Program-made: the position numbers and the translations under genes
In this document: positions 582 through 20,844 of the stretch, one piece after another
Layout: the number at the start of each line of letters is the position of its first letter
Numbering within the stretch: the first letter of the stretch is position 1
Assembly (NCBI GenBank): GCA_016219465.1
Contig: JACRMW010000034.1
Span: forward strand, 176 to 24,175
From: Candidatus Aenigmatarchaeota archaeon
GTDB taxonomy: Archaea > Aenigmatarchaeota > Aenigmatarchaeia > GW2011-AR5 > JACRAC01
DNA: 24,000 nucleotides
Reading direction: 5' to 3'
Notes under the pieces: model-generated
The model's input: only the letters and a program-made list of their open reading frames with translations
Told to the model about the DNA's origin: nothing
The model's database searches: none

Positions 582-2300
582 CTATATTTTAATCATCTTC
601 ATCATTGTCTTCAATGGCCATGCATTTATGATGTCTTTTTTCTCAGCCCATCCACGCCTTGCCTGGGCTATGCCAAGTTCAAGAAAAGGAAAATGATACC
701 CGCTGTGAGCATCTGTGTCTATTACAAGCCTGACACCTGCTTTTACAGCCATTCTTATATGTTCGTCCTTGAGATCAAGCCTGTCTGGCATTGAGTTTAT
801 TTCCAATATAGTGCCAGTTGATTTGGCTATGTCTATTATTTTTTCAATATCAAGCTGTATAGCAGGCCTTTTTCCAATAAGCCTGCACGTTGGATGAAAT
901 AATATATCCACGTGCTCGTTCTCCATTGCAGTTATTATTCTCTTTGTCATTTCTTGTTTTGTCTGGTTAAAACTAGCATGAACAGCTATACCAACAATAT
1001 CCAGCTCTTTTAAGCACGAGTCTTTTGTGTCCAATTTTCCATTTTTAAGAATATTCACTTCTGCTCCTTTCAATATTTTGATTCCTTTGAGCTTCTTGTT
1101 AAGTATATCTATTTCTTTTCCCTGTTTTGCTATTTTCTTCTCATTCAAACCATTGATCATTGCCAATGTTTTTGTGTGGTCTGTTATTGCAATATATTCT
1201 AATCCATAATTCTTAGCGGCGATTGCCATTTCCTCTATACTGTTAGAGCCGTCTGTCCAATTTGTCTGTATCTGCAGATCTCCTTTCAGGCTCTTGTATT
1301 CTATAAGTATTGGCAGTTTATCCTGCATAGCTGCTTCTATCTCTCCTGCATTTTCGCGCAATTCAGGCTCTATATATTTCAGACCCAGAGCGCCATAGAG
1401 GCTTTTTTCATCAATGCCTGATATGTTTTTCCCTTTTTTGAAAAGGCCATATTCACTTAGCTTCATTCTTTTATGTATAGCTATTCTTCTGAGGGCAATA
1501 TTATGATCCTTGCTTCCTGTAAAATAATTCAAAGCAGCTGCATAGCTTTTCTCAGGAACAACCCTTAAGTCTGCTCCTATTCCATTATTCAGCAAGACCA
1601 TTGTCTTTGTCTTTCCTTTTCCATAGACATTTATAACTTCTGGCATTGATACAAAAAAATCCATAACCTTTTCTGGCTTGTCTGATATTGCTAAGATATC
1701 TATGTCTCCGACTGTTTCTTTTCTTCGTCTGAATGAGCCTGATATCACTGCTTTTCTTACAAATGGGAGCTGCTTTAGCCTGTTTTCTATGTCAGTTGCA
1801 AGAGGCATTATATGGCCTAATAAATATCTTCCTTTTGTCTTTTTCAGAAATTCTATTCCTTTCAAAATATTTTCCTGGCTTTTTGCGCCAAAACCAGACA
1901 ACCTGCTTATCTTTCCCTGCTTTGCTGCTTTTTCCAATTCTGCAACTGATTTTATGCCTAGTTTTTTATAAAGAAATAATATTTTTCTTGGCCCTATGCC
2001 TTCTACTCTTCGCAATCCATCGATGTCAACAGGAATCTCTTTTTTCAGCCTTTCAAATGTCTGCAGCTTTCCTGTTTTCAACAACTCTTCTATTTTCTCT
2101 GCAATTGCCCTGCCAATACCAGGCAATTCCTGAAGAGCATCAATCCCGCCTTTTTTATACAACAGTTCTATATCAGTCGGAAGGGACTCAATTGTCTGGC
2201 CAGTTCTTTCATAGGCTCTTATTTTAAAGACATTCTCATCCTTCATCTGCAGGAACAGGGCAATATCATAGAATATCTTTGCAATCTCCTCGTTTTTCAT
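582..2300 (-). CDS. polX: family X DNA polymerase with C-terminal PHP phosphoesterase domain (PolX)
   Basis: ORF 582-2315. It has helix-hairpin-helix motifs (LPGIGRAIAEKI, VEGIGPRKI), the nucleotidyltransferase motif GSFRRRKETVGDIDIL, and a PHP domain (TDHT..., HPT..., DTDAH). The ATG at 2300 (MKNEEIAKIFY) is preferred over the TTG at 2315. Confidence 0.9.
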   Translation of the reverse strand: MKNEEIAKIFYDIALFLQMKDENVFKIRAYERTGQTIESLPTDIELLYKKGGIDALQELPGIGRAIAEKIEELLKTGKLQTFERLKKEIPVDIDGLRRVEGIGPRKILFLYKKLGIKSVAELEKAAKQGKISRLSGFGAKSQENILKGIEFLKKTKGRYLLGHIMPLATDIENRLKQLPFVRKAVISGSFRRRKETVGDIDILAISDKPEKVMDFFVSMPEVINVYGKGKTKTMVLLNNGIGADLRVVPEKSYAAALNYFTGSKDHNIALRRIAIHKRMKLSEYGLFKKGKNISGIDEKSLYGALGLKYIEPELRENAGEIEAAMQDKLPILIEYKSLKGDLQIQTNWTDGSNSIEEMAIAAKNYGLEYIAITDHTKTLAMINGLNEKKIAKQGKEIDILNKKLKGIKILKGAEVNILKNGKLDTKDSCLKELDIVGIAVHASFNQTKQEMTKRIITAMENEHVDILFHPTCRLIGKRPAIQLDIEKIIDIAKSTGTILEINSMPDRLDLKDEHIRMAVKAGVRLVIDTDAHSGYHFPFLELGIAQARRGWAEKKDIINAWPLKTMMKMIKI

Positions 2301-2341
2301 AATACTATATTGCAAATCCTAATTAAAAAGATAATTATGCT

Positions 2342-3071: not shown

Positions 3072-3348
3072 TTATAGTGGACCAACAAAAGAATACAAAC
3101 AGAAGCTTTGCTTCTGTTGTACAAGAAGGAATTTGCAATTCCTTCTGTACGCAAAGACTTGAGAAGTCTTTGCTGTACAGATTGAATCCTAGATTCAATC
3201 ATGTATAGCAACCAATGAAATATTATATGTAAGTATATATGGTGAAGCATAGCTTCACCTATACAGGTGGAACTATGTTCCACCATGTACCTGATTATTT
3301 CATTGGCTTGCTATAAATGCGATATCAAAAGAACTTGTTCTTGTATAG
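3072..3348 (-). repeat. TGTACA-hairpin mosaic array A (reverse orientation relative to B, C and D)
   Basis: Ends are TTATAG (3072-3077) and CTATAA (3311-3316). Perfect hairpins lie at 3098-3118, 3124-3146, 3151-3173, 3180-3200, 3241-3259 and 3266-3284, joined by TGTACA, TGTAC, ATGTAT or TATACA. An internal inverted repeat, TATAGCAACCAATGAAAT (3204-3221) / ATTTCATTGGCTTGCTATA (3297-3315, one extra base), encloses two hairpins. An extra weak hairpin lies at 3329-3342. Confidence 0.9.
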
Positions 3349-3405
3349 AGTTTTTAGAATAAAGAACTATTAAATATACCAATAGTAAAATTATTATTGA
3401 TTATC

Positions 3406-3858
3406 ATGATCGTGAAAGGAAATATAATACCAGGTGTGCTGAGAGGAGTGCCATTGATTGAGAGATATCTTCACAGGCTCAGGAATGTCCTTGGGTTTGC
3501 GCCTTTTCTTGGAACTCTGAATATAAAGATTGAGAAAGCAATCAACATGAAGGACTATGAGACAAAACGCCTTGATCACATATTATTGAGTGGCAGGACA
3601 TGGATTGATGTAAGGCTTGCGCCTGCATCTCTTTATATCAGGGATGGAGAAACCCTGAATAAGATAGACTGCTGGATAATAAGAGAAGAAAAAGGAGTGC
3701 ATTATCCAGATGTTGTTGAAATCGTAGCAAAAGATGATATTAAAAAGACTATGAATGTAGAGATAGGAACAGAAGTAGAGCTGGAGATACATAAAGTAAA
3801 GAGACCAAGATATGAGAAGTATAGGGAAAAGATAAAATCTCTTATATTCCAGAGATAG
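3406..3858 (+). CDS. ribK: archaeal CTP-dependent riboflavin kinase
   Basis: GVLRGVPLIERYL...LGFAPFLGTLNIKIEK and the later beta-barrel segment resemble the MJ0056-type archaeal riboflavin kinase. The ATG at 3406 is in frame with the ORF-track TTG at 3397. Confidence 0.75.
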   Translation: MIVKGNIIPGVLRGVPLIERYLHRLRNVLGFAPFLGTLNIKIEKAINMKDYETKRLDHILLSGRTWIDVRLAPASLYIRDGETLNKIDCWIIREEKGVHYPDVVEIVAKDDIKKTMNVEIGTEVELEIHKVKRPRYEKYREKIKSLIFQR

Positions 3859-3883
3859 TGTATAAATTATAATTGGTGTGTAA

Positions 3884-4546
3884 ATGAGCTTTTTTACTCA
3901 GATAAATTTTCATGGAGATAACAACATTGGATTATATGGAATTGCCACAGACTCTTTCTGTTTGCTTGGAATTGATAACAAGAAAATAAATCAGCAGATA
4001 AAAAGCGTGCTGAAAGCGCCTGTCTACAAAGCGCAATTTCTTGATATAAATCTGGCAAAGCTTTTTACAGCAGGCAATTCTGCTGGAATAGTTCTGCCAT
4101 CAATGATGCCAAAGCAGGAGATAGATGATTTTAGAAAAGAGTTTGATTTCAAGATAAAAGTAATTGATACAAATTATGCCCTGGGAAACTTTATTCTAAT
4201 GAACGACAAGGGTATAGTGATCTCAGATGTCATCAAAAAACATAAGAATGAAATAGAAAAATTCTTTTCATTGGATGTTGTCATAGGAAAGATATCAAAA
4301 CTAAACCTGGTAGGGTCGCTTGGCATAGCCACGAACAAAGGATGTCTTCTTCATCCAGATGTATTGGACAAGGAAGCAAGCTTGATAGAAAAATCATTGG
4401 ATGTGCCTGTCAATATAGGAACAGTGTCTTTTGGCAGCCATTATCCAGGAGCAGGCATCATAGCAAACAGCAATGGCTTCATAACATCAAGAACAACATC
4501 AGGCCCTGAAATGGGAAGAATAACAGAAGCATTGGGATTTCTATAG
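3884..4546 (+). CDS. eif6: translation initiation factor 6 (aIF6)
   Basis: 220 aa. It shows the pentein-like repeated pattern (NIGLYGIATDSFCLLG, GNFILMNDKGIVIS, GSLGIATNKGCLLHP, AGIIANSNGFITS) typical of eIF6. Confidence 0.9.
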   Translation: MSFFTQINFHGDNNIGLYGIATDSFCLLGIDNKKINQQIKSVLKAPVYKAQFLDINLAKLFTAGNSAGIVLPSMMPKQEIDDFRKEFDFKIKVIDTNYALGNFILMNDKGIVISDVIKKHKNEIEKFFSLDVVIGKISKLNLVGSLGIATNKGCLLHPDVLDKEASLIEKSLDVPVNIGTVSFGSHYPGAGIIANSNGFITSRTTSGPEMGRITEALGFL

Positions 4547-4578
4547 GTTTTGCATTTCTACAAAACTGATTTTTATTT
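4547..4578 (+). terminator. hairpin GTTTTG/CAAAAC followed by a T5 tract directly after the eif6 stop
   Basis: Inverted repeat 4547-4552 / 4561-4566, then TGATTTTTATTT. Archaeal termination at oligo-T is established, but the call here is inferred. Confidence 0.3.
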
Positions 4579-4773
4579 ATAATGGAGAAAGCAGTTCGCC
4601 TGATTTTCTTGTGAAAATAAAAACACCCCCTCTCTTAAGCAATTCAAGTCCTCCAATCTTTATTGGCCAGCGAAATTCAGGCCCTATTAATTCAGTTTAT
4701 AAGAATTTGCAGTTATGAGATTGCGCAATTGCCTGTTGCTGTCTCCGTTTCTTTCCAGATTCAGATTATCAAA

Positions 4774-4932
4774 ATAGAGGACTTTGAATAACATGTGTTT
4801 TGGTCAAAGTCCTTATTGAGAACTTTCACATGGTGTACACAAAGACCTTTAGTCTTTGTGTACAGCGTGTAAAAAGACTTCAGAATACCTGAAGTCTTTT
4901 TACAGATTGTAGGGTTAATCAAAGTTCTCAAT
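4774..4932 (+). mobile_element. family-2 two-hairpin MITE-like element, copy 1, carrying a 77-bp insertion of two TGTACA hairpins
   Basis: Terminal inverted repeat ATAGAGGACTTTGAATAAC / GTTAATCAAAGTTCTCAAT. Hairpin 1 is AGGACTTTGA...TCAAAGTCCT. Hairpin 2 (GAGAACTTT...AAAGTTCTC) is interrupted at 4829-4905. It aligns to copies at 20581-20665 (minus) and 22158-22241 (plus). Confidence 0.8.
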
Positions 4933-5119
4933 AATCATTCATTAGCGCGAGATGCTTTTTATAGCAGCCAGTAATAAATGCTCTAGATTCATCATCAAGA
5001 TAGTCTGCTGAAAACCATGGAATATTAAGAACCTTTTCTTTAGCTTTTTCAGCGCGCGATAATCTGTCATGCACTGTGATTGTTTCTCCAGTAGAATATG
5101 GCATATTATCATTAGCCAT
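4928..5119 (-). CDS. hypothetical small protein (63 aa)
   Basis: ORF 4928-5146; the ATG at 5119 gives MANDNMPYSTGE.... CACTATAAAAAC lies about 36 nt upstream. The last codons and the stop lie inside the family-2 element end. I recognise no family. Confidence 0.4.
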   Translation of the reverse strand: MANDNMPYSTGETITVHDRLSRAEKAKEKVLNIPWFSADYLDDESRAFITGCYKKHLALMNDY

Positions 5120-5152
5120 GAAATCTTTTAATATACACATCCACATAAGTTT

Positions 5153-5225
5153 TTATAGTGAACCAAATATAGCTCGCTATAAACAATCCAGATACAACAA
5201 AGATTCTCTGAATCTTTGAATATAG
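5153..5225 (+). repeat. degenerate hairpin-array element with one cassette
   Basis: Starts TTATAGTGAACCAA at 5153 and contains TAGCTCGCTATAA. The hairpin CAAAGATT-CTCTG-AATCTTTG (5198-5218) is the same cassette as 5770-5792 with one loop change. Confidence 0.6.
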
Positions 5226-5235
5226 GAATGATAAT

Positions 5236-5697
5236 ATGGCAAAAACTAAAAAAGAAAAGACAGTTGATAATAAAAACACTGGCAATGAAAAAGAAGAGCT
5301 GCAAAAGCTCTATATGCAGTATGAAATTATGAAGCAATATTCTGCTGTTTATAATCAGGAGAATGCTGCAATAGAGGCAAAATTAGCTGAGATAGCTGTC
5401 ACAATAGAGGCAATAAAAGGGCTTCCAAAACTGGATAAACAGAATGAATTCCTGACAAATCTTGGCTCAAGTGTATTTATGAGCGCAGAAATAGCAGAGA
5501 ACGACAAAGTCATTATAGAGATTGGCTCAGGCGTGTTTGGAAAGAAGCCGGTTGATGAAGCTTTGCAGATGCTTGAAAAAAGAAGACAGGAGCTTGAAAA
5601 AACAAGCAGCCAGCTTCAAATGGAGATGACAAGCCTGAATATGCAGCTGCATCACTTGGAGCCGCACATACAAGAGCTCATGCAAAAGATGCAGTAA
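5236..5697 (+). CDS. pfdA: prefoldin alpha subunit
   Basis: 153 aa. Two coiled-coil arms flank the central beta-hairpin region (FLTNLGSSVFMSAEIAENDKVIIEIGSGVFGKKPVDEA). It sits upstream of ftsY, as in many archaea. Confidence 0.85.
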   Translation: MAKTKKEKTVDNKNTGNEKEELQKLYMQYEIMKQYSAVYNQENAAIEAKLAEIAVTIEAIKGLPKLDKQNEFLTNLGSSVFMSAEIAENDKVIIEIGSGVFGKKPVDEALQMLEKRRQELEKTSSQLQMEMTSLNMQLHHLEPHIQELMQKMQ

Positions 5698-5737
5698 TTC
5701 AACAGCTTTTTATTCTATCAATATTAAGCTTATTCTA

Positions 5738-5846
5738 TTATAGTGAAGCAAGTAAATAATCAGAATAAAACAAAGATTCTCTAAATCTTTGTGTACAGAA
5801 AGAACTATGTTCTTTCTTGTATAATATCACTTGCTTCATATATAGC
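5738..5846 (+). repeat. TGTACA-hairpin element F (two cassettes with a closing stem)
   Basis: TTATAG-TGAAGCAAGT (5738-5753) pairs with ACTTGCTTCA (5829-5838), followed by TATATAGC. Hairpins lie at 5770-5792 and 5798-5816, separated by TGTACA (5792-5797) and followed by TGTAT. Confidence 0.85.
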
Positions 5847-5905
5847 AAACAACAAATATAATACTGAATACTTTGTTGTATTGCTATAAGCAAAGAGTGA
5901 TTTTT

Positions 5906-7570
5906 ATGTTTGGTATATTAAAGAAAAAACTTAAAGAAGTCATAAGCAAGGTCTCTGGTCGCATAGATAAAGAGGAATATAAGGAAATGCCTGCTCCTCA
6001 GCCAGGAACAATAGAGTCTTCTATGTCTATTGAAACAAACGAACCCAGTGAACAAGAAAGAATAGAAACTGAAAAAGTATTAGAGAACGAGAAAAAAGAT
6101 ATGGTAAAAGATAATGATAAGGAAAAATTATCTTCTGATGAAAAGCAGGATCTAATAGACGAGCTTGTTGAGACAGACCAGAAAATAGAGCAGGAAATAA
6201 GCAAGAAAGTGGAAGAATTGAAAGAATTTGAAGAAACAGTGGAAAAAGAAATAAAAGAAGAAAAAAGAGTTCTTGAAGATGTTGAAGAAAAACACGATGC
6301 TAAATTAATTCATGAAATTGAAGAGGAGATAAAGGAAGAAAAAAAGATTGTAAACGAAATTGATAAAGAAAAGCAGGAATTGGAAGAAATTGAGAAAAAG
6401 ATTGATGAGGAAAAGAAATCTGTTCTTGCTGCTGAAATAGAGCCAAAAAAGAAATCTATCCTTGAGAGAATTCTTCCAATGAAAACTAAAAAGCTTTCTG
6501 AACTTTCTGAAGCTAAAAAAATTATTGTGCCAGAGCCGGTTGTGGAGCCAGACAAACCAATTAAACAAGAGCCTATTATCAAGATAACAAAGTCAGTTGT
6601 GCCAGAAAAACCAACTACAATGCCACAAACCATTTCTATAAAGGTTGATGAAAAATCAATAGATATTGTTGAGAAAGCAGAACCGAGCGCAGCAGAGCTT
6701 GTTGTTGAGAAAAAAGGGTTTTTTACAAAAATAAAGGAAAAAACCCTTTCAGAAGACGACATAAAGGATATACTTGCTGATATACGCCATGCATTGCTGG
6801 AGAATGATGTTGCCCTGGATGTTTCAGATTGTATAATAAATGATCTGAAGAAAGAATTGATTGGCAGGACAATCAGCAGAGGAAGAACAGAAGAGGTTAT
6901 AGAAAATGCAATGAAGAATGCTGTTCTTGGAGTGCTGAGCCAGGAAAGAATAGACTTAGACAATATGTTAGAACAAGCAAAAGAACCGTTGTTGGTGATA
7001 TTTCTTGGGTTCAATGGTGTTGGGAAGACGACTGTGCTTTCTAAAATAGCTCATAGATATAAAAAATACAAGCCAATTCTTGCAGCAGGCGATACATTCA
7101 GAGCAGCAAGCATAGAACAGTTGGAAGAACATTCAAAAAACATTGGAGCTGATTTAGTAAAGCACAGATATGGCGCTGATTCAGCAGCAGTTATCTTTGA
7201 CGCAAAAAAACATGCTGCTGCGGCAGATTCTAAACTAGTATTGGCTGACACAGCAGGAAGAGCTCATACAAATGCAAATCTCATGGATGAACTGAAAAAA
7301 ATATGCAGGGTAAACAAGCCTGATTTGAAAATATTGGTATTGGACGCATTGACAGGCAATGATATCTATGAACAGGCAAGACTGTTTGATCAGGCAGTTG
7401 GTGTAGATGCTATAATACTTACAAAAACAGATGTCTATGAAAAAGGAGGCTCTGCATTGAGCGCAGCCTATACAATCAAAAAGCCTATTTTATTCTTAGG
7501 AACAGGCCAGAACTATGGCGACCTGAAAGAATTCAGCCCAGAAGAGATTGTGAAGAATCTGCTGGGATAG
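5906..7570 (+). CDS. ftsY: signal recognition particle receptor FtsY with a long charged N-terminal region
   Basis: The C-terminal NG domain has GFNGVGKTT, DTAGR and TKTD GTPase motifs. The ATG at 5906 (MFGILKKKLKEVISK) is preferred over the upstream TTG at 5873. The first ~270 aa are E/K-rich. Confidence 0.9.
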   Translation: MFGILKKKLKEVISKVSGRIDKEEYKEMPAPQPGTIESSMSIETNEPSEQERIETEKVLENEKKDMVKDNDKEKLSSDEKQDLIDELVETDQKIEQEISKKVEELKEFEETVEKEIKEEKRVLEDVEEKHDAKLIHEIEEEIKEEKKIVNEIDKEKQELEEIEKKIDEEKKSVLAAEIEPKKKSILERILPMKTKKLSELSEAKKIIVPEPVVEPDKPIKQEPIIKITKSVVPEKPTTMPQTISIKVDEKSIDIVEKAEPSAAELVVEKKGFFTKIKEKTLSEDDIKDILADIRHALLENDVALDVSDCIINDLKKELIGRTISRGRTEEVIENAMKNAVLGVLSQERIDLDNMLEQAKEPLLVIFLGFNGVGKTTVLSKIAHRYKKYKPILAAGDTFRAASIEQLEEHSKNIGADLVKHRYGADSAAVIFDAKKHAAAADSKLVLADTAGRAHTNANLMDELKKICRVNKPDLKILVLDALTGNDIYEQARLFDQAVGVDAIILTKTDVYEKGGSALSAAYTIKKPILFLGTGQNYGDLKEFSPEEIVKNLLG

Positions 7571-7677
7571 ATAAAATGGACAGAATTAGCCAGACATGGA
7601 ATGATCAATGAAATTGAAAGACTCCAAAAAGCAAACATTCTTAAAAAAATGATTGGCATCCTGTTGATGAAATGGAT

Positions 7678-7913
7678 TTATAGCAAACCAAGTAGATAAT
7701 CAGGTATGATACATGGTGGACCCGTTGAGTCCACCTGTACAGGTTGAGCATAGCTCAACCATGTATATTGGTTTGCTATACAGAATTGAACATAATTCAA
7801 TCTGTACAGGTAAAGCTTGCCTTGCCATGTATCGGTACAAGGAGGAAAATATATTTCCTCCTGTACAACAGAAGCAAAGCTTCTGTTTGTATTCTTTTGT
7901 TGGCTCACTATAA
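7678..7913 (+). repeat. TGTACA-hairpin mosaic array B
   Basis: Ends are TTATAG (7678-7683) and CTATAA (7908-7913). Hairpins lie at 7715-7735, 7742-7760, 7783-7802, 7809-7826, 7840-7862 and 7867-7887. Junctions are TGTACA at 7736, 7803 and 7862, GTACA at 7835, and ATGTAT/TGTAT variants. The inner inverted repeat TATAGCAAACCAA (7679-7691) / TTGGTTTGCTATA (7768-7780) encloses the first two hairpins. Confidence 0.9.
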
Positions 7914-7915
7914 TT

Positions 7916-8296
7916 TCACACAATAAAACTCAGATCTCCGATTTCTGGATTGATCACAACATCGCAGTTATTCCATTTGCCACGCTCTTTATTTTTATAC
8001 CCTTCATAAAACCATACATATTCATTCTGCTGCTGTTCAGACGTTTCAAATATTTCATTAGCAGTTTTCAGATCACTCAGCTTTGCTTCAGTATAGCCTT
8101 TCCAAAATAATTTTGATCTAAGTGGTTTTAGCGACTTGTAGTTTCCAACAATATTAACCTGTGTAAAGAAATATATTTCTGGCATCTTGCTGGCATTGTT
8201 TATAAGATAAGCCATGCTTTTTTCATTCATTGTTTTTCTAGCATTTCTCTCATAATTTTCTGATTCTTCATAAGATGTTAAATTATCACTATACAT
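7916..8296 (-). CDS. hypothetical protein whose 5' end is disrupted by a 19-bp tandem duplication
   Basis: ORF 7916-8308 (GTG start), with an internal ATG at 8296. An SD-preceded ATG at 8327 would be in frame only if one 19-bp repeat copy were removed. No family recognised. Confidence 0.5.
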   Translation of the reverse strand: MYSDNLTSYEESENYERNARKTMNEKSMAYLINNASKMPEIYFFTQVNIVGNYKSLKPLRSKLFWKGYTEAKLSDLKTANEIFETSEQQQNEYVWFYEGYKNKERGKWNNCDVVINPEIGDLSFIV

Positions 8297-8320
8297 AACC
8301 TTTATCACTATACATAACCT
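8283..8320. repeat. perfect 19-bp x2 tandem duplication (TTATCACTATACATAACCT)
   Basis: Copies at 8283-8301 and 8302-8320 are identical. They cover the start region of the 7916-8327 gene. Confidence 0.95.
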
Positions 8321-8517
8321 GCTTCATTACTCCTTCATACAGGGGATTTGTTTTCATGTCCTATGAAAACTCTTGATGCGCTATAATCCTGATCTATTGC
8401 TCCTATCATTTTATCACTTCAGTTACTTGCATGCAAAGCTTTAAATGTTGACTATTTGGTTGAGAATAGAAATTAGAATATCTTTTTAGCTAATTTATTT
8501 ACAGAGCACAAACAGTT

Positions 8518-8964
8518 CTAGGCTTCAACGGTTCTTGATTTCGTGTCAGCTGTGTTCAGCTTAGGCGCTTCTGCTGATGTTTTTGCGTCTCCTTCTATTT
8601 TCTTTTCTTCTTCTGCTTTTTGCATTGCCTTTGCGCCCATTCTTGCCTTTAGCTGATCCAAGAGTTTTTCTTTTTTCCTGACTTTCATTGCCACAAAATC
8701 CTGATAATCACGGCCAAGAATCTCTGCTTTGACAACATCATCTGCAATGACAGCTTTTACCCTTACCATTGTCTGCGGCTTTTTTGGCCCTCTTGTCCAG
8801 ACAAGCGAGTTCAGGTGCCTGCCTATCTTTATTGTCTTCTTTTTTGTATGCAGCTTCAGATATTCTTTGATGAGAGCCATTGCATAATTTGATCTCCTCA
8901 TCCTGCACTTTTTGCGCGTTTCTCCAATAGGAATATTAAAAACTTTTTCAACTGGTTCTGCCAT
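8518..8964 (-). CDS. rpl31e: ribosomal protein L31e with a K/E/A-rich C-terminal extension
   Basis: VFNIPIGETRKKCRMRRSNYAMALIKEYLKLH...LNSLVWTRGPKKPQTMVRVKA matches the L31e core. It lies directly downstream of L39e. Confidence 0.9.
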   Translation of the reverse strand: MAEPVEKVFNIPIGETRKKCRMRRSNYAMALIKEYLKLHTKKKTIKIGRHLNSLVWTRGPKKPQTMVRVKAVIADDVVKAEILGRDYQDFVAMKVRKKEKLLDQLKARMGAKAMQKAEEEKKIEGDAKTSAEAPKLNTADTKSRTVEA

Positions 8965-8995
8965 TTTTAAACACCTTAATTATTCAAGATTATTA

Positions 8996-9160
8996 TCACA
9001 CCTTAATCCTGCCTCGTCTCCAGTGTTTTGTGGCAATGCGAATTCTTCGCGTTCTTGCTCTTTTCAGAGTGAATTTCCTGATATCAGCCCATCTAGGAGC
9101 GCTCTGCTTCCTGGCTGCCACAAGTTTTCTTTTTTCACCGGATTTTTTTATTGAACCCAT
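8996..9160 (-). CDS. rpl39e: ribosomal protein L39e (54 aa)
   Basis: Below the ORF-track cutoff. My translation is MGSIKKSGEKRKLVAARKQSAPRWADIRKFTLKRARTRRIRIATKHWRRGRIKV, with the typical basic L39e sequence ending HWRR..K.KV. Confidence 0.85.
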   Translation of the reverse strand: MGSIKKSGEKRKLVAARKQSAPRWADIRKFTLKRARTRRIRIATKHWRRGRIKV

Positions 9161-9254
9161 TAATATCACATGATGTTATTTTAGATATCTTATTAAGATG
9201 ATATTTAAATGCCTGTTAATATTCTGATGGCAATAATCTTTAAATATATCCATT

Positions 9255-9270: not shown

Positions 9271-9278
9271 TAGTGGGT

Positions 9279-9536
9279 ATGACTAATGTGAAAATTGATG
9301 ACAGGGGCAGAATATTAATACCTCAAGAAATTCGCGAAGCTATACATATGGAATCAGAAGAGGTGTTGAATCTGGTTTTAGAGGATGACACTATTCTTCT
9401 AAGGAGATTAAGACACAAAAAGACGCAGAAGAAGGATTCTTTGCTTGTTTTATTAGAATCTCCTATGCATGTTGATCCAAAGAAATTAAAGGGGATTGAT
9501 CTGGAAGAGATAGAGAATAAAATGTGGTTGCCGTGA
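9279..9536 (+). CDS. vapB: AbrB/SpoVT-family antitoxin (VapB-like)
   Basis: MTNVKIDDRGRILIPQEIREAIHMESEEVL is a canonical SpoVT-AbrB N-terminus. It overlaps the downstream PIN gene. Confidence 0.8.
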   Translation: MTNVKIDDRGRILIPQEIREAIHMESEEVLNLVLEDDTILLRRLRHKKTQKKDSLLVLLESPMHVDPKKLKGIDLEEIENKMWLP

Positions 9537-9925
9537 TTCTTATAGATTCCAATATATGGATTTTTGCAAATATTGAGGAATATCCTGAGAACAGTTCTGC
9601 AAGAAAACTCATAATAAATGCCACAAAAGAACAGATAGCAATCAATGCAATAATTTTGTCAGAAGTCTTTCATAAGCTGAGTGTCTTGACAAATGTTGAA
9701 AAGGCAATAAAAGCCATTGAAAATATCATTGATTCAGATTATGTTGTTTATCTGCCAATTGAAGAATCCACCATATCAAAAGCATTATATCTTACAAAGA
9801 AGCAACTTAGAATAAATGACGCTATAATTGCGCAGCATGCAAAGGACATTAGATGCAAACTCTTGAGCGACAATGCAAAGGATTTCAATAAAATAGACGG
9901 CATAAAGTTGTTAAAATTCAGATGA
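9524..9925 (+). CDS. vapC: PIN-domain ribonuclease toxin (VapC-like)
   Basis: Acidic PIN residues occur in LIDSN, SEV, NDAIIA and SDNAKDF. The GTG start at 9524 overlaps vapB by 13 nt; an in-frame GTG at 9533 overlaps by 4 nt (GTGA). Confidence 0.85.
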   Translation: MVAVILIDSNIWIFANIEEYPENSSARKLIINATKEQIAINAIILSEVFHKLSVLTNVEKAIKAIENIIDSDYVVYLPIEESTISKALYLTKKQLRINDAIIAQHAKDIRCKLLSDNAKDFNKIDGIKLLKFR

Positions 9926-15927: not shown

Positions 15928-16208
15928 AACAAAATGACTTTCGAAGAAAGTCATTTTGTTCTTGTATAGGAAAGTATATTTATTATGATATTTTCCTATA
16001 CAAGACACACAGAAAGCAGAGCTTTCTGGTGCACCAAACAACGTATGTTGTTTGTGTGTTTAGCGAGCTTGCGAAGCAAGGCCGCTTTGTTCTTTCTGTA
16101 CAGGTAAAGCTTGCTTTACCATGTATCGGTACAAGGAGGAAAATATATTTCCTCCTGTACAACAGAAGCAAAGCTTCTGTTTGTATTCTTTTGTTGGCTC
16201 ACTATAAT
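15928..16208 (+). repeat. hairpin array C: long hairpins, a two-hairpin domain closed by ACACAC/GTGTGT, then three TGTACA cassettes
   Basis: 14-bp stem at 15928-15960. 13-bp stem at 15961-16004. ACACAC (16005-16010) / GTGTGT (16054-16059) encloses hairpins at 16010-16028 and 16035-16054. Cassettes lie at 16103-16120, 16134-16156 and 16161-16181. Segment 16097-16208 matches 7803-7914 at 110 of 112 positions. Confidence 0.9.
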
Positions 16209-17742: not shown

Positions 17743-18012
17743 TCATAGCAATTTACTAGAATCATCATAAACATTTTTCCTATGTCCAATGAAAAGAACT
17801 ATTATTTTCTTTTCTGCATGATTTATTTCAAGGATCGCTCTATAATCACCTATTCTAATTTTCCAGAAAGGTGTTGAGACAAGTTTTTCGCAATGATCTG
17901 TAGCATTTCTTAATAACTTTAGTTCTGTTTTTATTCTATCCCCATTAATTCTATCAATCTTTTTAAGAAACTCTGCTGCCTTAGGATGCAGAAGAACAGT
18001 ATAATTCATCAT
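17743..18012 (-). CDS. relE: RelE/ParE-family toxin
   Basis: 89 aa. WKIRIGDYRAILEINHAEKKIIVLFIGHRKNVY is the RelE/StbE C-terminal signature. It has a 4-nt ATGA overlap with the upstream antitoxin gene. Confidence 0.8.
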   Translation of the reverse strand: MMNYTVLLHPKAAEFLKKIDRINGDRIKTELKLLRNATDHCEKLVSTPFWKIRIGDYRAILEINHAEKKIIVLFIGHRKNVYDDSSKLL

Positions 18013-20552: not shown

Positions 20553-20665
20553 TATATAGCTCTCCAATGAAGTATTCACTATAGAGAACTTTGATTAACC
20601 CTACAACTCATCAAAGTTCACAATAAGGACCTTGACCAAAACACACATTATTCAAAGTCCTCTAT
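20553..20665 (-). mobile_element. family-2 two-hairpin MITE-like element, copy 2 (reverse), preceded by a TATAG...CTATAG mini-module
   Basis: The reverse complement of 20581-20665 aligns to 4774-4828 plus 4906-4932, and to 22158-22241. The mini-module 20553-20584 reads TTATATAGCTCTCCAATGAAGTATTCACTATAG. Confidence 0.8.
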
Positions 20666-20844
20666 ATTATTTCATTGGAAGCTATACATGGTTGAACCAT
20701 GTTCAACCTGTACAGCAAAGACTTCTCAAGTCTTTGCGTACAGAAGGAATTGCAAATTCCTTCTTGTACAGATGAACTCTCTAAGTTCATCATGTATGTG
20801 AACCAACTATTATCATACCTGATTATTTAGTTGGTTCACTATAG
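20666..20844 (+). repeat. TGTACA-hairpin mosaic array D
   Basis: Hairpins lie at 20690-20708, 20715-20737, 20742-20764 and 20771-20791, with TGTACA or GTACA at 20709, 20738 and 20765. The closing hairpin is GTGAACCAACT (20798-20808) / AGTTGGTTCAC (20829-20839), followed by CTATAG. Segment 20709-20770 is identical to the reverse complement of 3118-3179. Confidence 0.9.

Follow-up and report, generated by a model that had tools for sequence, protein, structure and literature searches.

Among described systems, the bacterial REP, REPIN and BIME repeats would seem the closest in logic to the hairpin elements reported here. In these repeats an inverted doublet is the spreading unit, singlets decay and copies gather in mosaic clusters, and the elements are thought to act as folded single-stranded DNA (PMC3116915; PMC6006769). 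A REP is defined by a tetranucleotide, GTAG or GTGG, that lies 0-2 nt 5' of the foot of its hairpin, and class 2 TnpA-REP proteins have been reported from bacteria (PMC6006769). We analysed a stretch of 24,000 nt (the window) of contig JACRMW010000034.1, a chromosomal piece of a Candidatus Aenigmatarchaeota (DPANN) archaeon, which carries seven intergenic clusters of short hairpins (3073-3315, 4760-4935, 5160-5222, 5738-5888, 7679-7912, 15928-16206 and 20580-20844). These hairpins belong to a palindromic mobile element family of an archaeal phylum that is like both REPINs and MITEs (small transposable elements with inverted repeats) and has an unusual doublet architecture. We hold with moderate confidence that they make up one family of tiny palindromic mobile DNA elements, shared across the lineage, of which a folded single-strand form is recognised or copied.

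The TA-duplicating MITEs of bacteria include the Correia elements (CREE) of Neisseria, and further RUP and ERIC. With these MITEs and with IS630/Tc1-mariner elements, the Aenigmatarchaeota elements share TA ends, an overall palindromic form, intergenic and nested placement and a proneness to rearrangement; they differ in being two to three times smaller and in having internally palindromic halves with covarying stems. In integron attC sites, the folded single-strand structure is conserved rather than the sequence, which results in arm-to-arm covariation, but attC sites go with gene cassettes, an adjoining integrase gene and GTTRRRY cores, none of which is present in the Aenigmatarchaeota elements. 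The double-hairpin elements of Allomyces mitochondria are very small, intergenic, single or in tandem, variable between close relatives and without a known enzyme, and are reported to lack flanking duplications (PMC2800124). Repetitive hairpin-forming elements of sponges and the mobile GC clusters of yeast mitochondria are likewise tiny units of hairpin type. The mitochondrial elements resemble those of Aenigmatarchaeota in size, behaviour and the absence of a known enzyme, but they belong to eukaryote organelles and are unrelated in sequence, and flanking TA is the rule in the archaeal elements. A literature search found no description of such elements in Aenigmatarchaeota or DPANN.

The original prediction, made from the letters of the window, was that hairpins in positionally equivalent cassettes of two inverted arrays, A and B, are kept paired by compensatory substitutions. 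Sequence reading and a hairpin scan found every hairpin that it named in place and perfectly paired: GGTGAAGC/ata/GCTTCACC (3241-3259) and GGTGGAAC/tat/GTTCCACC (3266-3284) in array A, GGTGGAC/ccgttga/GTCCACC (7715-7735) and GGTTGAGC/ata/GCTCAACC (7742-7760) in array B, and GGTTGAAC/cat/GTTCAACC at 20690-20708. As predicted, GGTGAAGC and GGTTGAGC differ at two stem positions, on both arms; between GGTGGAAC and GGTGGAC one base pair is lost, again from both arms. The series of stems around CAAAGAC (3151-3173, 4834-4864, 4868-4904, 5198-5218, 5770-5792 and 20715-20737) and around GATTGAATC (3180-3200 and 20771-20791) are real as well. Perfect complementarity holds for the named GGT-type variants and not for all, since the window also has a decayed hairpin at 7809-7826 with 2 mismatches and another at 7783-7802 with a 1-nt bulge. 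Perfect hairpins whose stem reaches 8 bp or more number 31 in the window, where 30 dinucleotide shuffles gave 3.8 on average and never more than 8, and TGTACA occurs 13 times, against 4.3 expected, so that chance is excluded; together the clusters occupy ~1.4 kb of the ~6.6 kb of the window outside long open reading frames (ORFs).

That structure rather than sequence is kept was borne out in a larger sample. One genome per prokaryotic species was searched with the pattern CTGTACAGGT N8-20 ACCATGTAT, in which the flanks and three outer stem bases are fixed and the interior is unconstrained. The pattern occurs at at least 82 loci; among the matches listed, 74 come from ~22 archaeal species known from metagenome-assembled genomes (MAGs), most of them titled Aenigmatarchaeota, and 8 from unrelated bacteria. 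All five pairs of the free interior are Watson-Crick in 86 of the 95 archaeal copies listed (90.5%, at least ~22 species), spread over at least 13 different stems, and unpaired copies are thus rare. By contrast, the interior pairs in none of the 8 bacterial matches listed and none of 6 viral-contig matches, chance hits that act as built-in controls. Across 36 distinct 32-nt sequences, 97.6% of cells are paired; four of the five free pairs vary on both sides, with 47 cells double-changed and 0 single-changed. The covariation score was reached by 0 of 500 shuffles, and controls with slid partners pair at 27-44%. The covariation is real and lineage-wide.

A second search was blind to the stems. 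Within a frame TAC-N-GTAC-N-GTA, in which perfect stems of at least 7 bp were demanded in both halves, 95 of 142 candidates are perfect in both, against 0 of 77 in shuffled DNA, and they comprise 63 distinct stems. Arms within a hairpin are 96.8% complementary, whereas the two hairpins of one cassette are 55% identical; none of 81 cassettes has two identical hairpins, as if identical neighbours were unstable or non-viable. The constrained property is pairing within the hairpin, because arms are ~97% complementary while cassette halves are 55% alike, and a reader of duplex sites that tolerated such divergence would not preserve self-complementarity. The same consideration bears on the idea that the hairpins are palindromic duplex sites for a dimeric regulator or nucleoid protein, chromosome-organising sites or cruciforms with a host role, copied by ordinary recombination. 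Such sites would agree with ACCTGTACAGGT being a perfect 12-bp palindrome, with linkers that all alternate purine and pyrimidine (TGTACA, ATACAT and GTGCAC) and with the conservation of the elements in many species. A dimer that reads sequence would, however, fix the sequence and not permit 63 self-complementary stems, and discrete 50-nt insertions flanked by TA indicate transposition; we regard this explanation as improbable. Some hairpin pairs have a GTGCAC joint and CGTGTA/TACACG flanks where others have TGTACA and ATGTAT, both in the window (16029-16034) and at loci of other genomes (L076 ~6440-6470, L011 ~2450).

Loops are 3 nt long in 305 of 506 hairpins. The same stem and flanks occur with reverse-complemented loops, ata and tat within one genome, gaa and ttc or ttt and aaa between genomes (for example L001, L022 and L026 versus L010, L052 and L075); read from the inner to the outer side, T-rich loops prevail (gtt 14, aac 0). 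Loop reversal could reflect hairpins switching place within cassettes, or copying of a flip-flop type.

Short loops and perfect arms would also be seen if every hairpin had formed in place by palindromic duplication, through snap-back or template-switch synthesis in the course of repair, and the window does encode a family-X polymerase; pairing would then need no selection. The original prediction had named this as what would undo it. Against it, the stems conform to a shared pattern, each unit is a fixed 48-nt doublet whose ends are conserved, and the same stems reappear in 4-8 species (with identical flanks in up to 8) and at many loci in a genome, spreading as identical copies. This recurrence largely refutes the idea, which we consider highly improbable.

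Strong covariation would equally be expected of functional RNA hairpins, if the arrays were transcribed and the stems kept for 3'-end protection, termination, processing sites or the sequestering of ribosome-binding-like sequences. Hairpins are 14-fold denser between genes (3.3 per kb) than within them (0.24 per kb), and their intergenic density is a little higher where genes converge (4.5 per kb) than where they run in tandem (3.4 per kb) or diverge (2.5 per kb); of 95 cassettes, only 4 fall within crude ORFs. The 5' arms are purine-rich, with an rGGnGAAnC-like pattern. They are Shine-Dalgarno-like (GGTGA, GGAGG) and the 3' arms anti-Shine-Dalgarno-like, a resemblance that would suit an RNA role. 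As for the G:U compatibility by which the original prediction had proposed to find the strand, there is no G:U pair among 288 cells. The few mismatches in archaeal copies have a transversion-type spectrum, and, read on the sense strand of 10-bp stems, they number 41 G·T versus 48 A·C, a noisy count of low power that includes bulged feet, with no sense-strand bias. Moreover, the elements occur in both orientations, in divergent promoter regions too, as discrete TA-flanked insertions with identical copies at unrelated loci, and a scan of the whole window against Rfam at gathering thresholds gave zero matches. Selection at the RNA level is disfavoured by the lack of G:U cells, the transversion-type mismatches, the missing sense-strand bias and the promoter-side elements, and we think functional RNA unlikely. 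Where the prediction had left a choice between RNA and single-stranded DNA, nothing thus favours RNA; a role of single-stranded DNA is plausible, if unproven. The covariation seen here also calls for caution, as such a signal can stem from mobile DNA rather than functional RNA.

Intrinsic-terminator-like hairpins were ruled out, because the hairpins reach 2.5 per kb between divergent gene starts and are flanked by TGTACA or ATGTAT, without T runs. Nearly all 5' arms are purine-rich and often carry AGGAGG, GGTGA or GGAGA, and 3' arms resemble the anti-Shine-Dalgarno end of 16S rRNA (TCACC, CCTCCT); the resemblance holds on both strands because the stems are palindromic. A tRNA search of the window found none.

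The units are organised in a recurrent way. The commonest is a 48-nt double-hairpin cassette, CATGG-hairpin-CC TGTACA GG-hairpin-CCATG, and a second class consists of 45-50-nt long hairpins, TATAG…CTATA; the commonest 5' flanks of hairpins are TGTACA (69), ATACAT (58) and CTGTAC (24). Both classes meet in a composite module that recurs across genomes: it begins with a long hairpin TATAGTGAA.CAA…TTG.TTCACATA, continues with CAT-[GGT hairpin]-TGTACA-[GGT hairpin]-ATG and ends with a second long hairpin, TATAGCAAACAAGG…CCTTGTATTGCTATA, that has a conserved one-base bulge.

Comparison of repeats for presence and absence, within and between genomes, identified 62 non-redundant events. The modal insert, in 30 of the 62, is 50 nt, which equals the 48-nt cassette plus a TA. 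The junction repeat is exactly TA in 22 events and contains TA in ~9 more; CATGG/CCATG termini are found in 12 of the 22, and the targets are TA in an A/T-rich context. In one genome, an empty site TTCACA-TA-TAGCAAAC is matched by a filled one, TTCACA-TA-[CATGGTAAAGCaaaGCTTTACC TGTACA GGTGAAACgttGTTTCACCATG]-TA-TAGCAAAC, and a second pair of empty and filled sites, AAGTCA-TA-TCGTG with and without another cassette, lies in the loop of a long hairpin. Long hairpins and whole mosaics are inserted likewise, with bounds TATAG…CTATA. New units sit in a TA beside a resident unit or in its loop, and nested mosaics result in which hairpins are separated by TGTACA, ATACAT or ATGTAT. An indexed search for empty sites, covering 260 TA-flanked units, found no true presence/absence event of a single hairpin.

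These events allow a closer comparison with REPINs. The Aenigmatarchaeota elements are likewise short, high-copy extragenic palindromes with a short conserved foot motif, mosaic clusters and decaying singlets, and it is likewise the doublet that moves (30 of 62 events are a 50-nt doublet) and not the singlet (0 of 260). In contrast, (T)GTAC(A) or TA-CA takes the place of GT[AG]G at the foot; the hairpins, with an 8-10-bp stem and a 3-nt loop, are perfect and less long; the partners in a doublet differ in stem, so that one cannot pair with the other; the elements live in an archaeon; each insert has TA at either side; and no RAYT was found in the ~545 kb searched. Because the GT[AG]G foot and, in that sample, a RAYT are absent, the elements are best treated as analogues of the REP/REPIN group and are not filed as its members.

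The same events also admit a different mechanism, in which the elements move as duplex DNA, like IS630/Tc1-mariner MITEs: the cassette halves serve as terminal inverted repeats for a DDE transposase, which cuts out the duplex, pastes it into TA and duplicates the TA, and the hairpin is irrelevant. With this agree the TA on both sides of inserts (22 of 62 exactly, more containing TA), the CA…TG termini, the TA targets in A/T-rich surroundings and the related, inverted halves of the cassette. Bacterial TA-duplicating MITEs such as Correia elements are likewise not known to have a transposase. IS630 elements do occur in archaea (PMC13343696). Against it, halves only 55% alike would have to be tolerated, yet each is 97% self-complementary at the same positions, which nothing in such a mechanism would maintain; a 48-bp duplex would be very short for joining two ends; and a search of the sample found no IS630-like gene or longer element with these ends. 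We rate this mechanism as rather unlikely.

A linked enzyme was sought in ~545 kb of Aenigmatarchaeota DNA from ~22 genomes. Searches of this DNA by phmmer, with approximate IS200 TnpA and E. coli RAYT queries, found no RAYT and only one ordinary class 1 IS200-type TnpA. This protein (DHVH … YVLSQQ), the sole Y1 HUH gene product in the sample, is encoded on L083, 1.5 kb from the nearest hairpin. A serine-recombinase motif search of the sample found none, and long elements bounded by the same inverted ends have only housekeeping genes between modules; no IS630-like gene was found in the sample. Proteins encoded in the window are confined to housekeeping and toxin-antitoxin functions, and an insertion sequence on locus L001, from a related genome, has ends unrelated to the hairpin elements.

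The TnpA gene on L083 (1560-2031, from a related MAG) adjoins CTATATTGAGAACTTTGATTATCCC, which resembles arm GAGAACTTTGATTAACCC of a long hairpin found twice in the window (4905-4935 and 20584-20610); a hairpin of this kind may have been the insertion site of an IS200/IS605 element.

We favour recognition or copying of a folded single strand, and under this reading spread would proceed through two adjacent hairpins on one DNA strand with TA at their feet, in the manner of bacterial REP/REPIN elements and of IS200/IS605 ends. Folded as single-stranded DNA, the modules give z = -11.3 and -12.1. Only copies whose arms pair would propagate; the variants that survive would then always be changed in both arms, and mispaired ones (for example 7809-7826) would be dead copies drifting. 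A more specific proposal, which is possible but which we put forward tentatively, is that Aenigmatarchaeota carry vertically persistent replicators and that a putative host-encoded enzyme reads shape, two adjacent single-stranded hairpins with TA feet, more than sequence. If so, reading of shape would account for the spread of dozens of stems that look unrelated, every one of them still self-complementary, and the enzyme would be an archaeal counterpart of the REPIN-RAYT system or represent a new structure-directed mechanism of transposition or copying.

Several points weigh against the single-strand interpretation. TA on both sides is a hallmark of double-stranded cut-and-paste by IS630/Tc1-mariner and not of known single-strand HUH transposition; here one cannot tell a true 2-bp TA duplication from insertion, beside a TA, of an element that itself ends in TA. 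No transposase or nuclease could be tied to the elements in the ~545 kb searched, and clustering of 1239 ORFs revealed no gene family enriched near hairpins. Persistence across a phylum with very small genomes could reflect a host function, in RNA or in chromatin. The stems are not free: given the rGGnGAAnC-like arms and stems that persist in 4-8 species, some sequence is therefore also read, or the elements serve, or have been co-opted by, the host. Finally, the locus sample was selected by a single hairpin type, and its species and locus counts are those among the matches listed.

In the window, the hairpin clusters resolve into the following features, including arrays A to D.

3073-3097: array A's outer end, formed by a single arm of a long-hairpin element (TATAGTGGACCAACAAAAGAATA).
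3098-3118: short hairpin AACAGAAGC/ttt/GCTTCTGTT from the hairpin scan, TA-flanked, with copies at 7867-7887 and 16161-16181.
3120-3178: double-hairpin cassette with flanking TAs; hairpins at 3124-3146 (AGAAGGAATT) and 3151-3173 (GCAAAGACTT) with a GTAC joint.
3180-3200: short hairpin GATTGAATC/cta/GATTCAATC from the hairpin scan.
3204-3315: array A module, in which a degenerate double-hairpin cassette (hairpins 3241-3259, GGTGAAGC, and 3266-3284, GGTGGAAC; joint TATACA) occupies the loop of long hairpin TATAGCAACCAATGAAAT…ATTTCATTGGCTTGCTATA.
4760-4935: inverted copy of the 20580-20680 element, with extra hairpins at 4834-4864 and 4868-4904.
5160-5222: a TATAGTGAACCAA… element end and hairpin CAAAGATTC (5198-5218), upstream of the prefoldin gene.
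Within 5738-5888: long hairpin TATAGTGAAGCAAGT…ACTTGCTTCATATA enclosing hairpins 5770-5792 and 5797-5817.
5841-5888: next after it, long hairpin TATAGCAAACAACAAA…TTTGTTGTATTGCTATA with a conserved 1-nt bulge.
7679-7780: array B module, long hairpin TATAGCAAACCAA…TTGGTTTGCTATA with short hairpins 7715-7735 and 7742-7760; its cassette reads TA-CATGGTGGAC…GTCCACC-TGTACA-GGTTGAGC…GCTCAACCATG-TA.
7783-7912: remainder of array B, with the bulged hairpin 7783-7802, the decayed GGTAAAGC hairpin 7809-7826, AGGAGGAAA 7840-7862, AACAGAAGC 7867-7887 and a terminal half long hairpin.
15928-16206: array C, between convergent genes; hairpins 15928-15960, 16010-16028, 16035-16054 (GTGCAC junction), 16103-16120, 16134-16156 and 16161-16181, and a terminal half long hairpin.
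20580-20844: array D, between divergent genes; long hairpin TATAGAGAACTTTGAT…ATCAAAGTTC, hairpin GGTTGAAC 20690-20708, cassette 20709-20770 (hairpins 20715-20737 and 20742-20764), hairpin GATGAACT 20771-20791 and long hairpin TGTGAACCAAC…GTTGGTTCACTATA 20797-20844.

The arrays are mosaics of nested TA-flanked insertions and not repeat-spacer arrays. This follows from a 62-nt cassette shared by 3120-3178 and 20709-20770, from the two-hairpin insertion in 4760-4935 compared with 20580-20680 and from the near-copy 7803-7912/16097-16206. Over 62 nt, the cassette at 3120-3178 and the reverse complement of 20709-20770 agree in every base (100%), and their neighbours differ on either side; the two extra hairpins of 4760-4935 occupy a TACA site that is empty in 20580-20680; and 7803-7912 and 16097-16206 are near-identical. 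The outer end of array A, inverted, terminates both array B (7888-7912) and array C (16182-16206). The organisation into arrays with a leader that had been proposed for these loci is accordingly not what is found. A CRISPR-like array, taken as identical direct repeats of 23-50 nt with unique spacers and a leader, was rejected, as what stays constant here is a 4-6-nt junction, and the hairpins vary and turn up again at other loci.

The 110-nt, three-hairpin mosaic that arrays B and C share also documents decay. Its hairpin at 7809-7826 (GGTAAAGC tt GCCTTGCC) has two mismatches, whereas the twin at 16103-16120 is perfect; in the array B copy, the GGTAAAGC hairpin is mispaired through a pair of transitions that both fall in its 3' arm. 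It is a clear example of a decaying copy.

How, then, do the cassettes of arrays A and B come to differ? In both modules a pair of short hairpins lies in the loop of a long one, TATAGCAA.CCAA…TTGG.TTGCTATA. The layout that they were said to share is real to the extent that 3204-3315 and 7679-7780 are modules of the same type in opposite orientation; strict positional equivalence is uncertain because the cassettes do not follow the same TA of the loop: it is CAGG-TA in A and CAGGTATGA-TA in B. Stepwise compensation between equivalent cassettes is not supported, since the differing stems GGTGGAAC, GGTGAAGC and GGTTGAAC occur in other species. With stems that recur elsewhere and loop TA positions that differ, the A/B differences read as differences between family members, and replacement by, or independent insertion of, different members in paralogous composite elements would fit the sequences at least as well as compensation fixed in place. 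GGTTGAGC (7742-7760) is the sole A/B stem seen so far in the window alone, and could be a local one-pair derivative of GGTTGAAC.

Arrays A and B are inverted relative to each other and enclose a 4.3-kb block, RibK-eIF6-prefoldin-FtsY, which is itself inverted with respect to the closest relative available for comparison (L001; FtsY identity 66%; window 3073-7912 versus L001 1-9233). In L001 the order is L31e-X-RibK-eIF6-prefoldin-FtsY … DUF429(-) … PolX(+), and the DUF429 proteins are 74% identical; the window's DUF429 gene, for an RNase-H-fold protein, adjoins array A. Mosaics sit at both breakpoints of the inversion, which is what recombination between inverted copies should produce.

In its first 18 bases, the Correia repeat TATAGTGGATTAACAAAAA (repeat sequence from PMC5039591) agrees at 16 with the long-hairpin end TATAGTGGACCAACAAAAG. 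Homology to the Correia repeat fails over the full 28 nt, where 18-19 bases match against 19-21 in shuffles. Correia-like ends of the form TATAGTGGA(CC/AC)AACAAAAG are found at 3073-3091, 7894-7912 and 16188-16206 of the window and at the JACPRW loci L073 and L076.

REPIN-like, structure-dependent mobile DNA has so far been described as bacterial, and its mitochondrial analogues have no known mechanism. A DPANN phylum with very small genomes, whose intergenic DNA consists largely of 48-nt double-hairpin units, is a compact natural system in which to find the mobilising enzyme. The elements mark rearrangement breakpoints, as at the 4.3-kb inversion between A and B, and can break metagenome-derived genome assemblies; they may also provide TATA-like or ribosome-binding-like sequences beside genes.

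The genes of the window include those for a family-X DNA polymerase, a CTP-dependent riboflavin kinase, eIF-6, prefoldin, FtsY, L31e, S19e, PCNA, PEP synthase and toxin-antitoxin pairs. A fragment of the FtsY is 100% identical to a protein of an Aenigmarchaeota MAG. The polymerase is a single ORF of 577 aa in the window (582-2315), whereas L001 has two overlapping gene calls (7571-9233); a frameshift or an assembly error in L001 could account for the split. Toxin-antitoxin genes stand amid the housekeeping genes at 9273-9925 and 17743-18012 and comprise a MazE/PrlF-like antitoxin paired with a PIN-domain toxin, as well as a ParE-like toxin; in L001, too, ParE and MazE/PemK pairs lie near FtsY.

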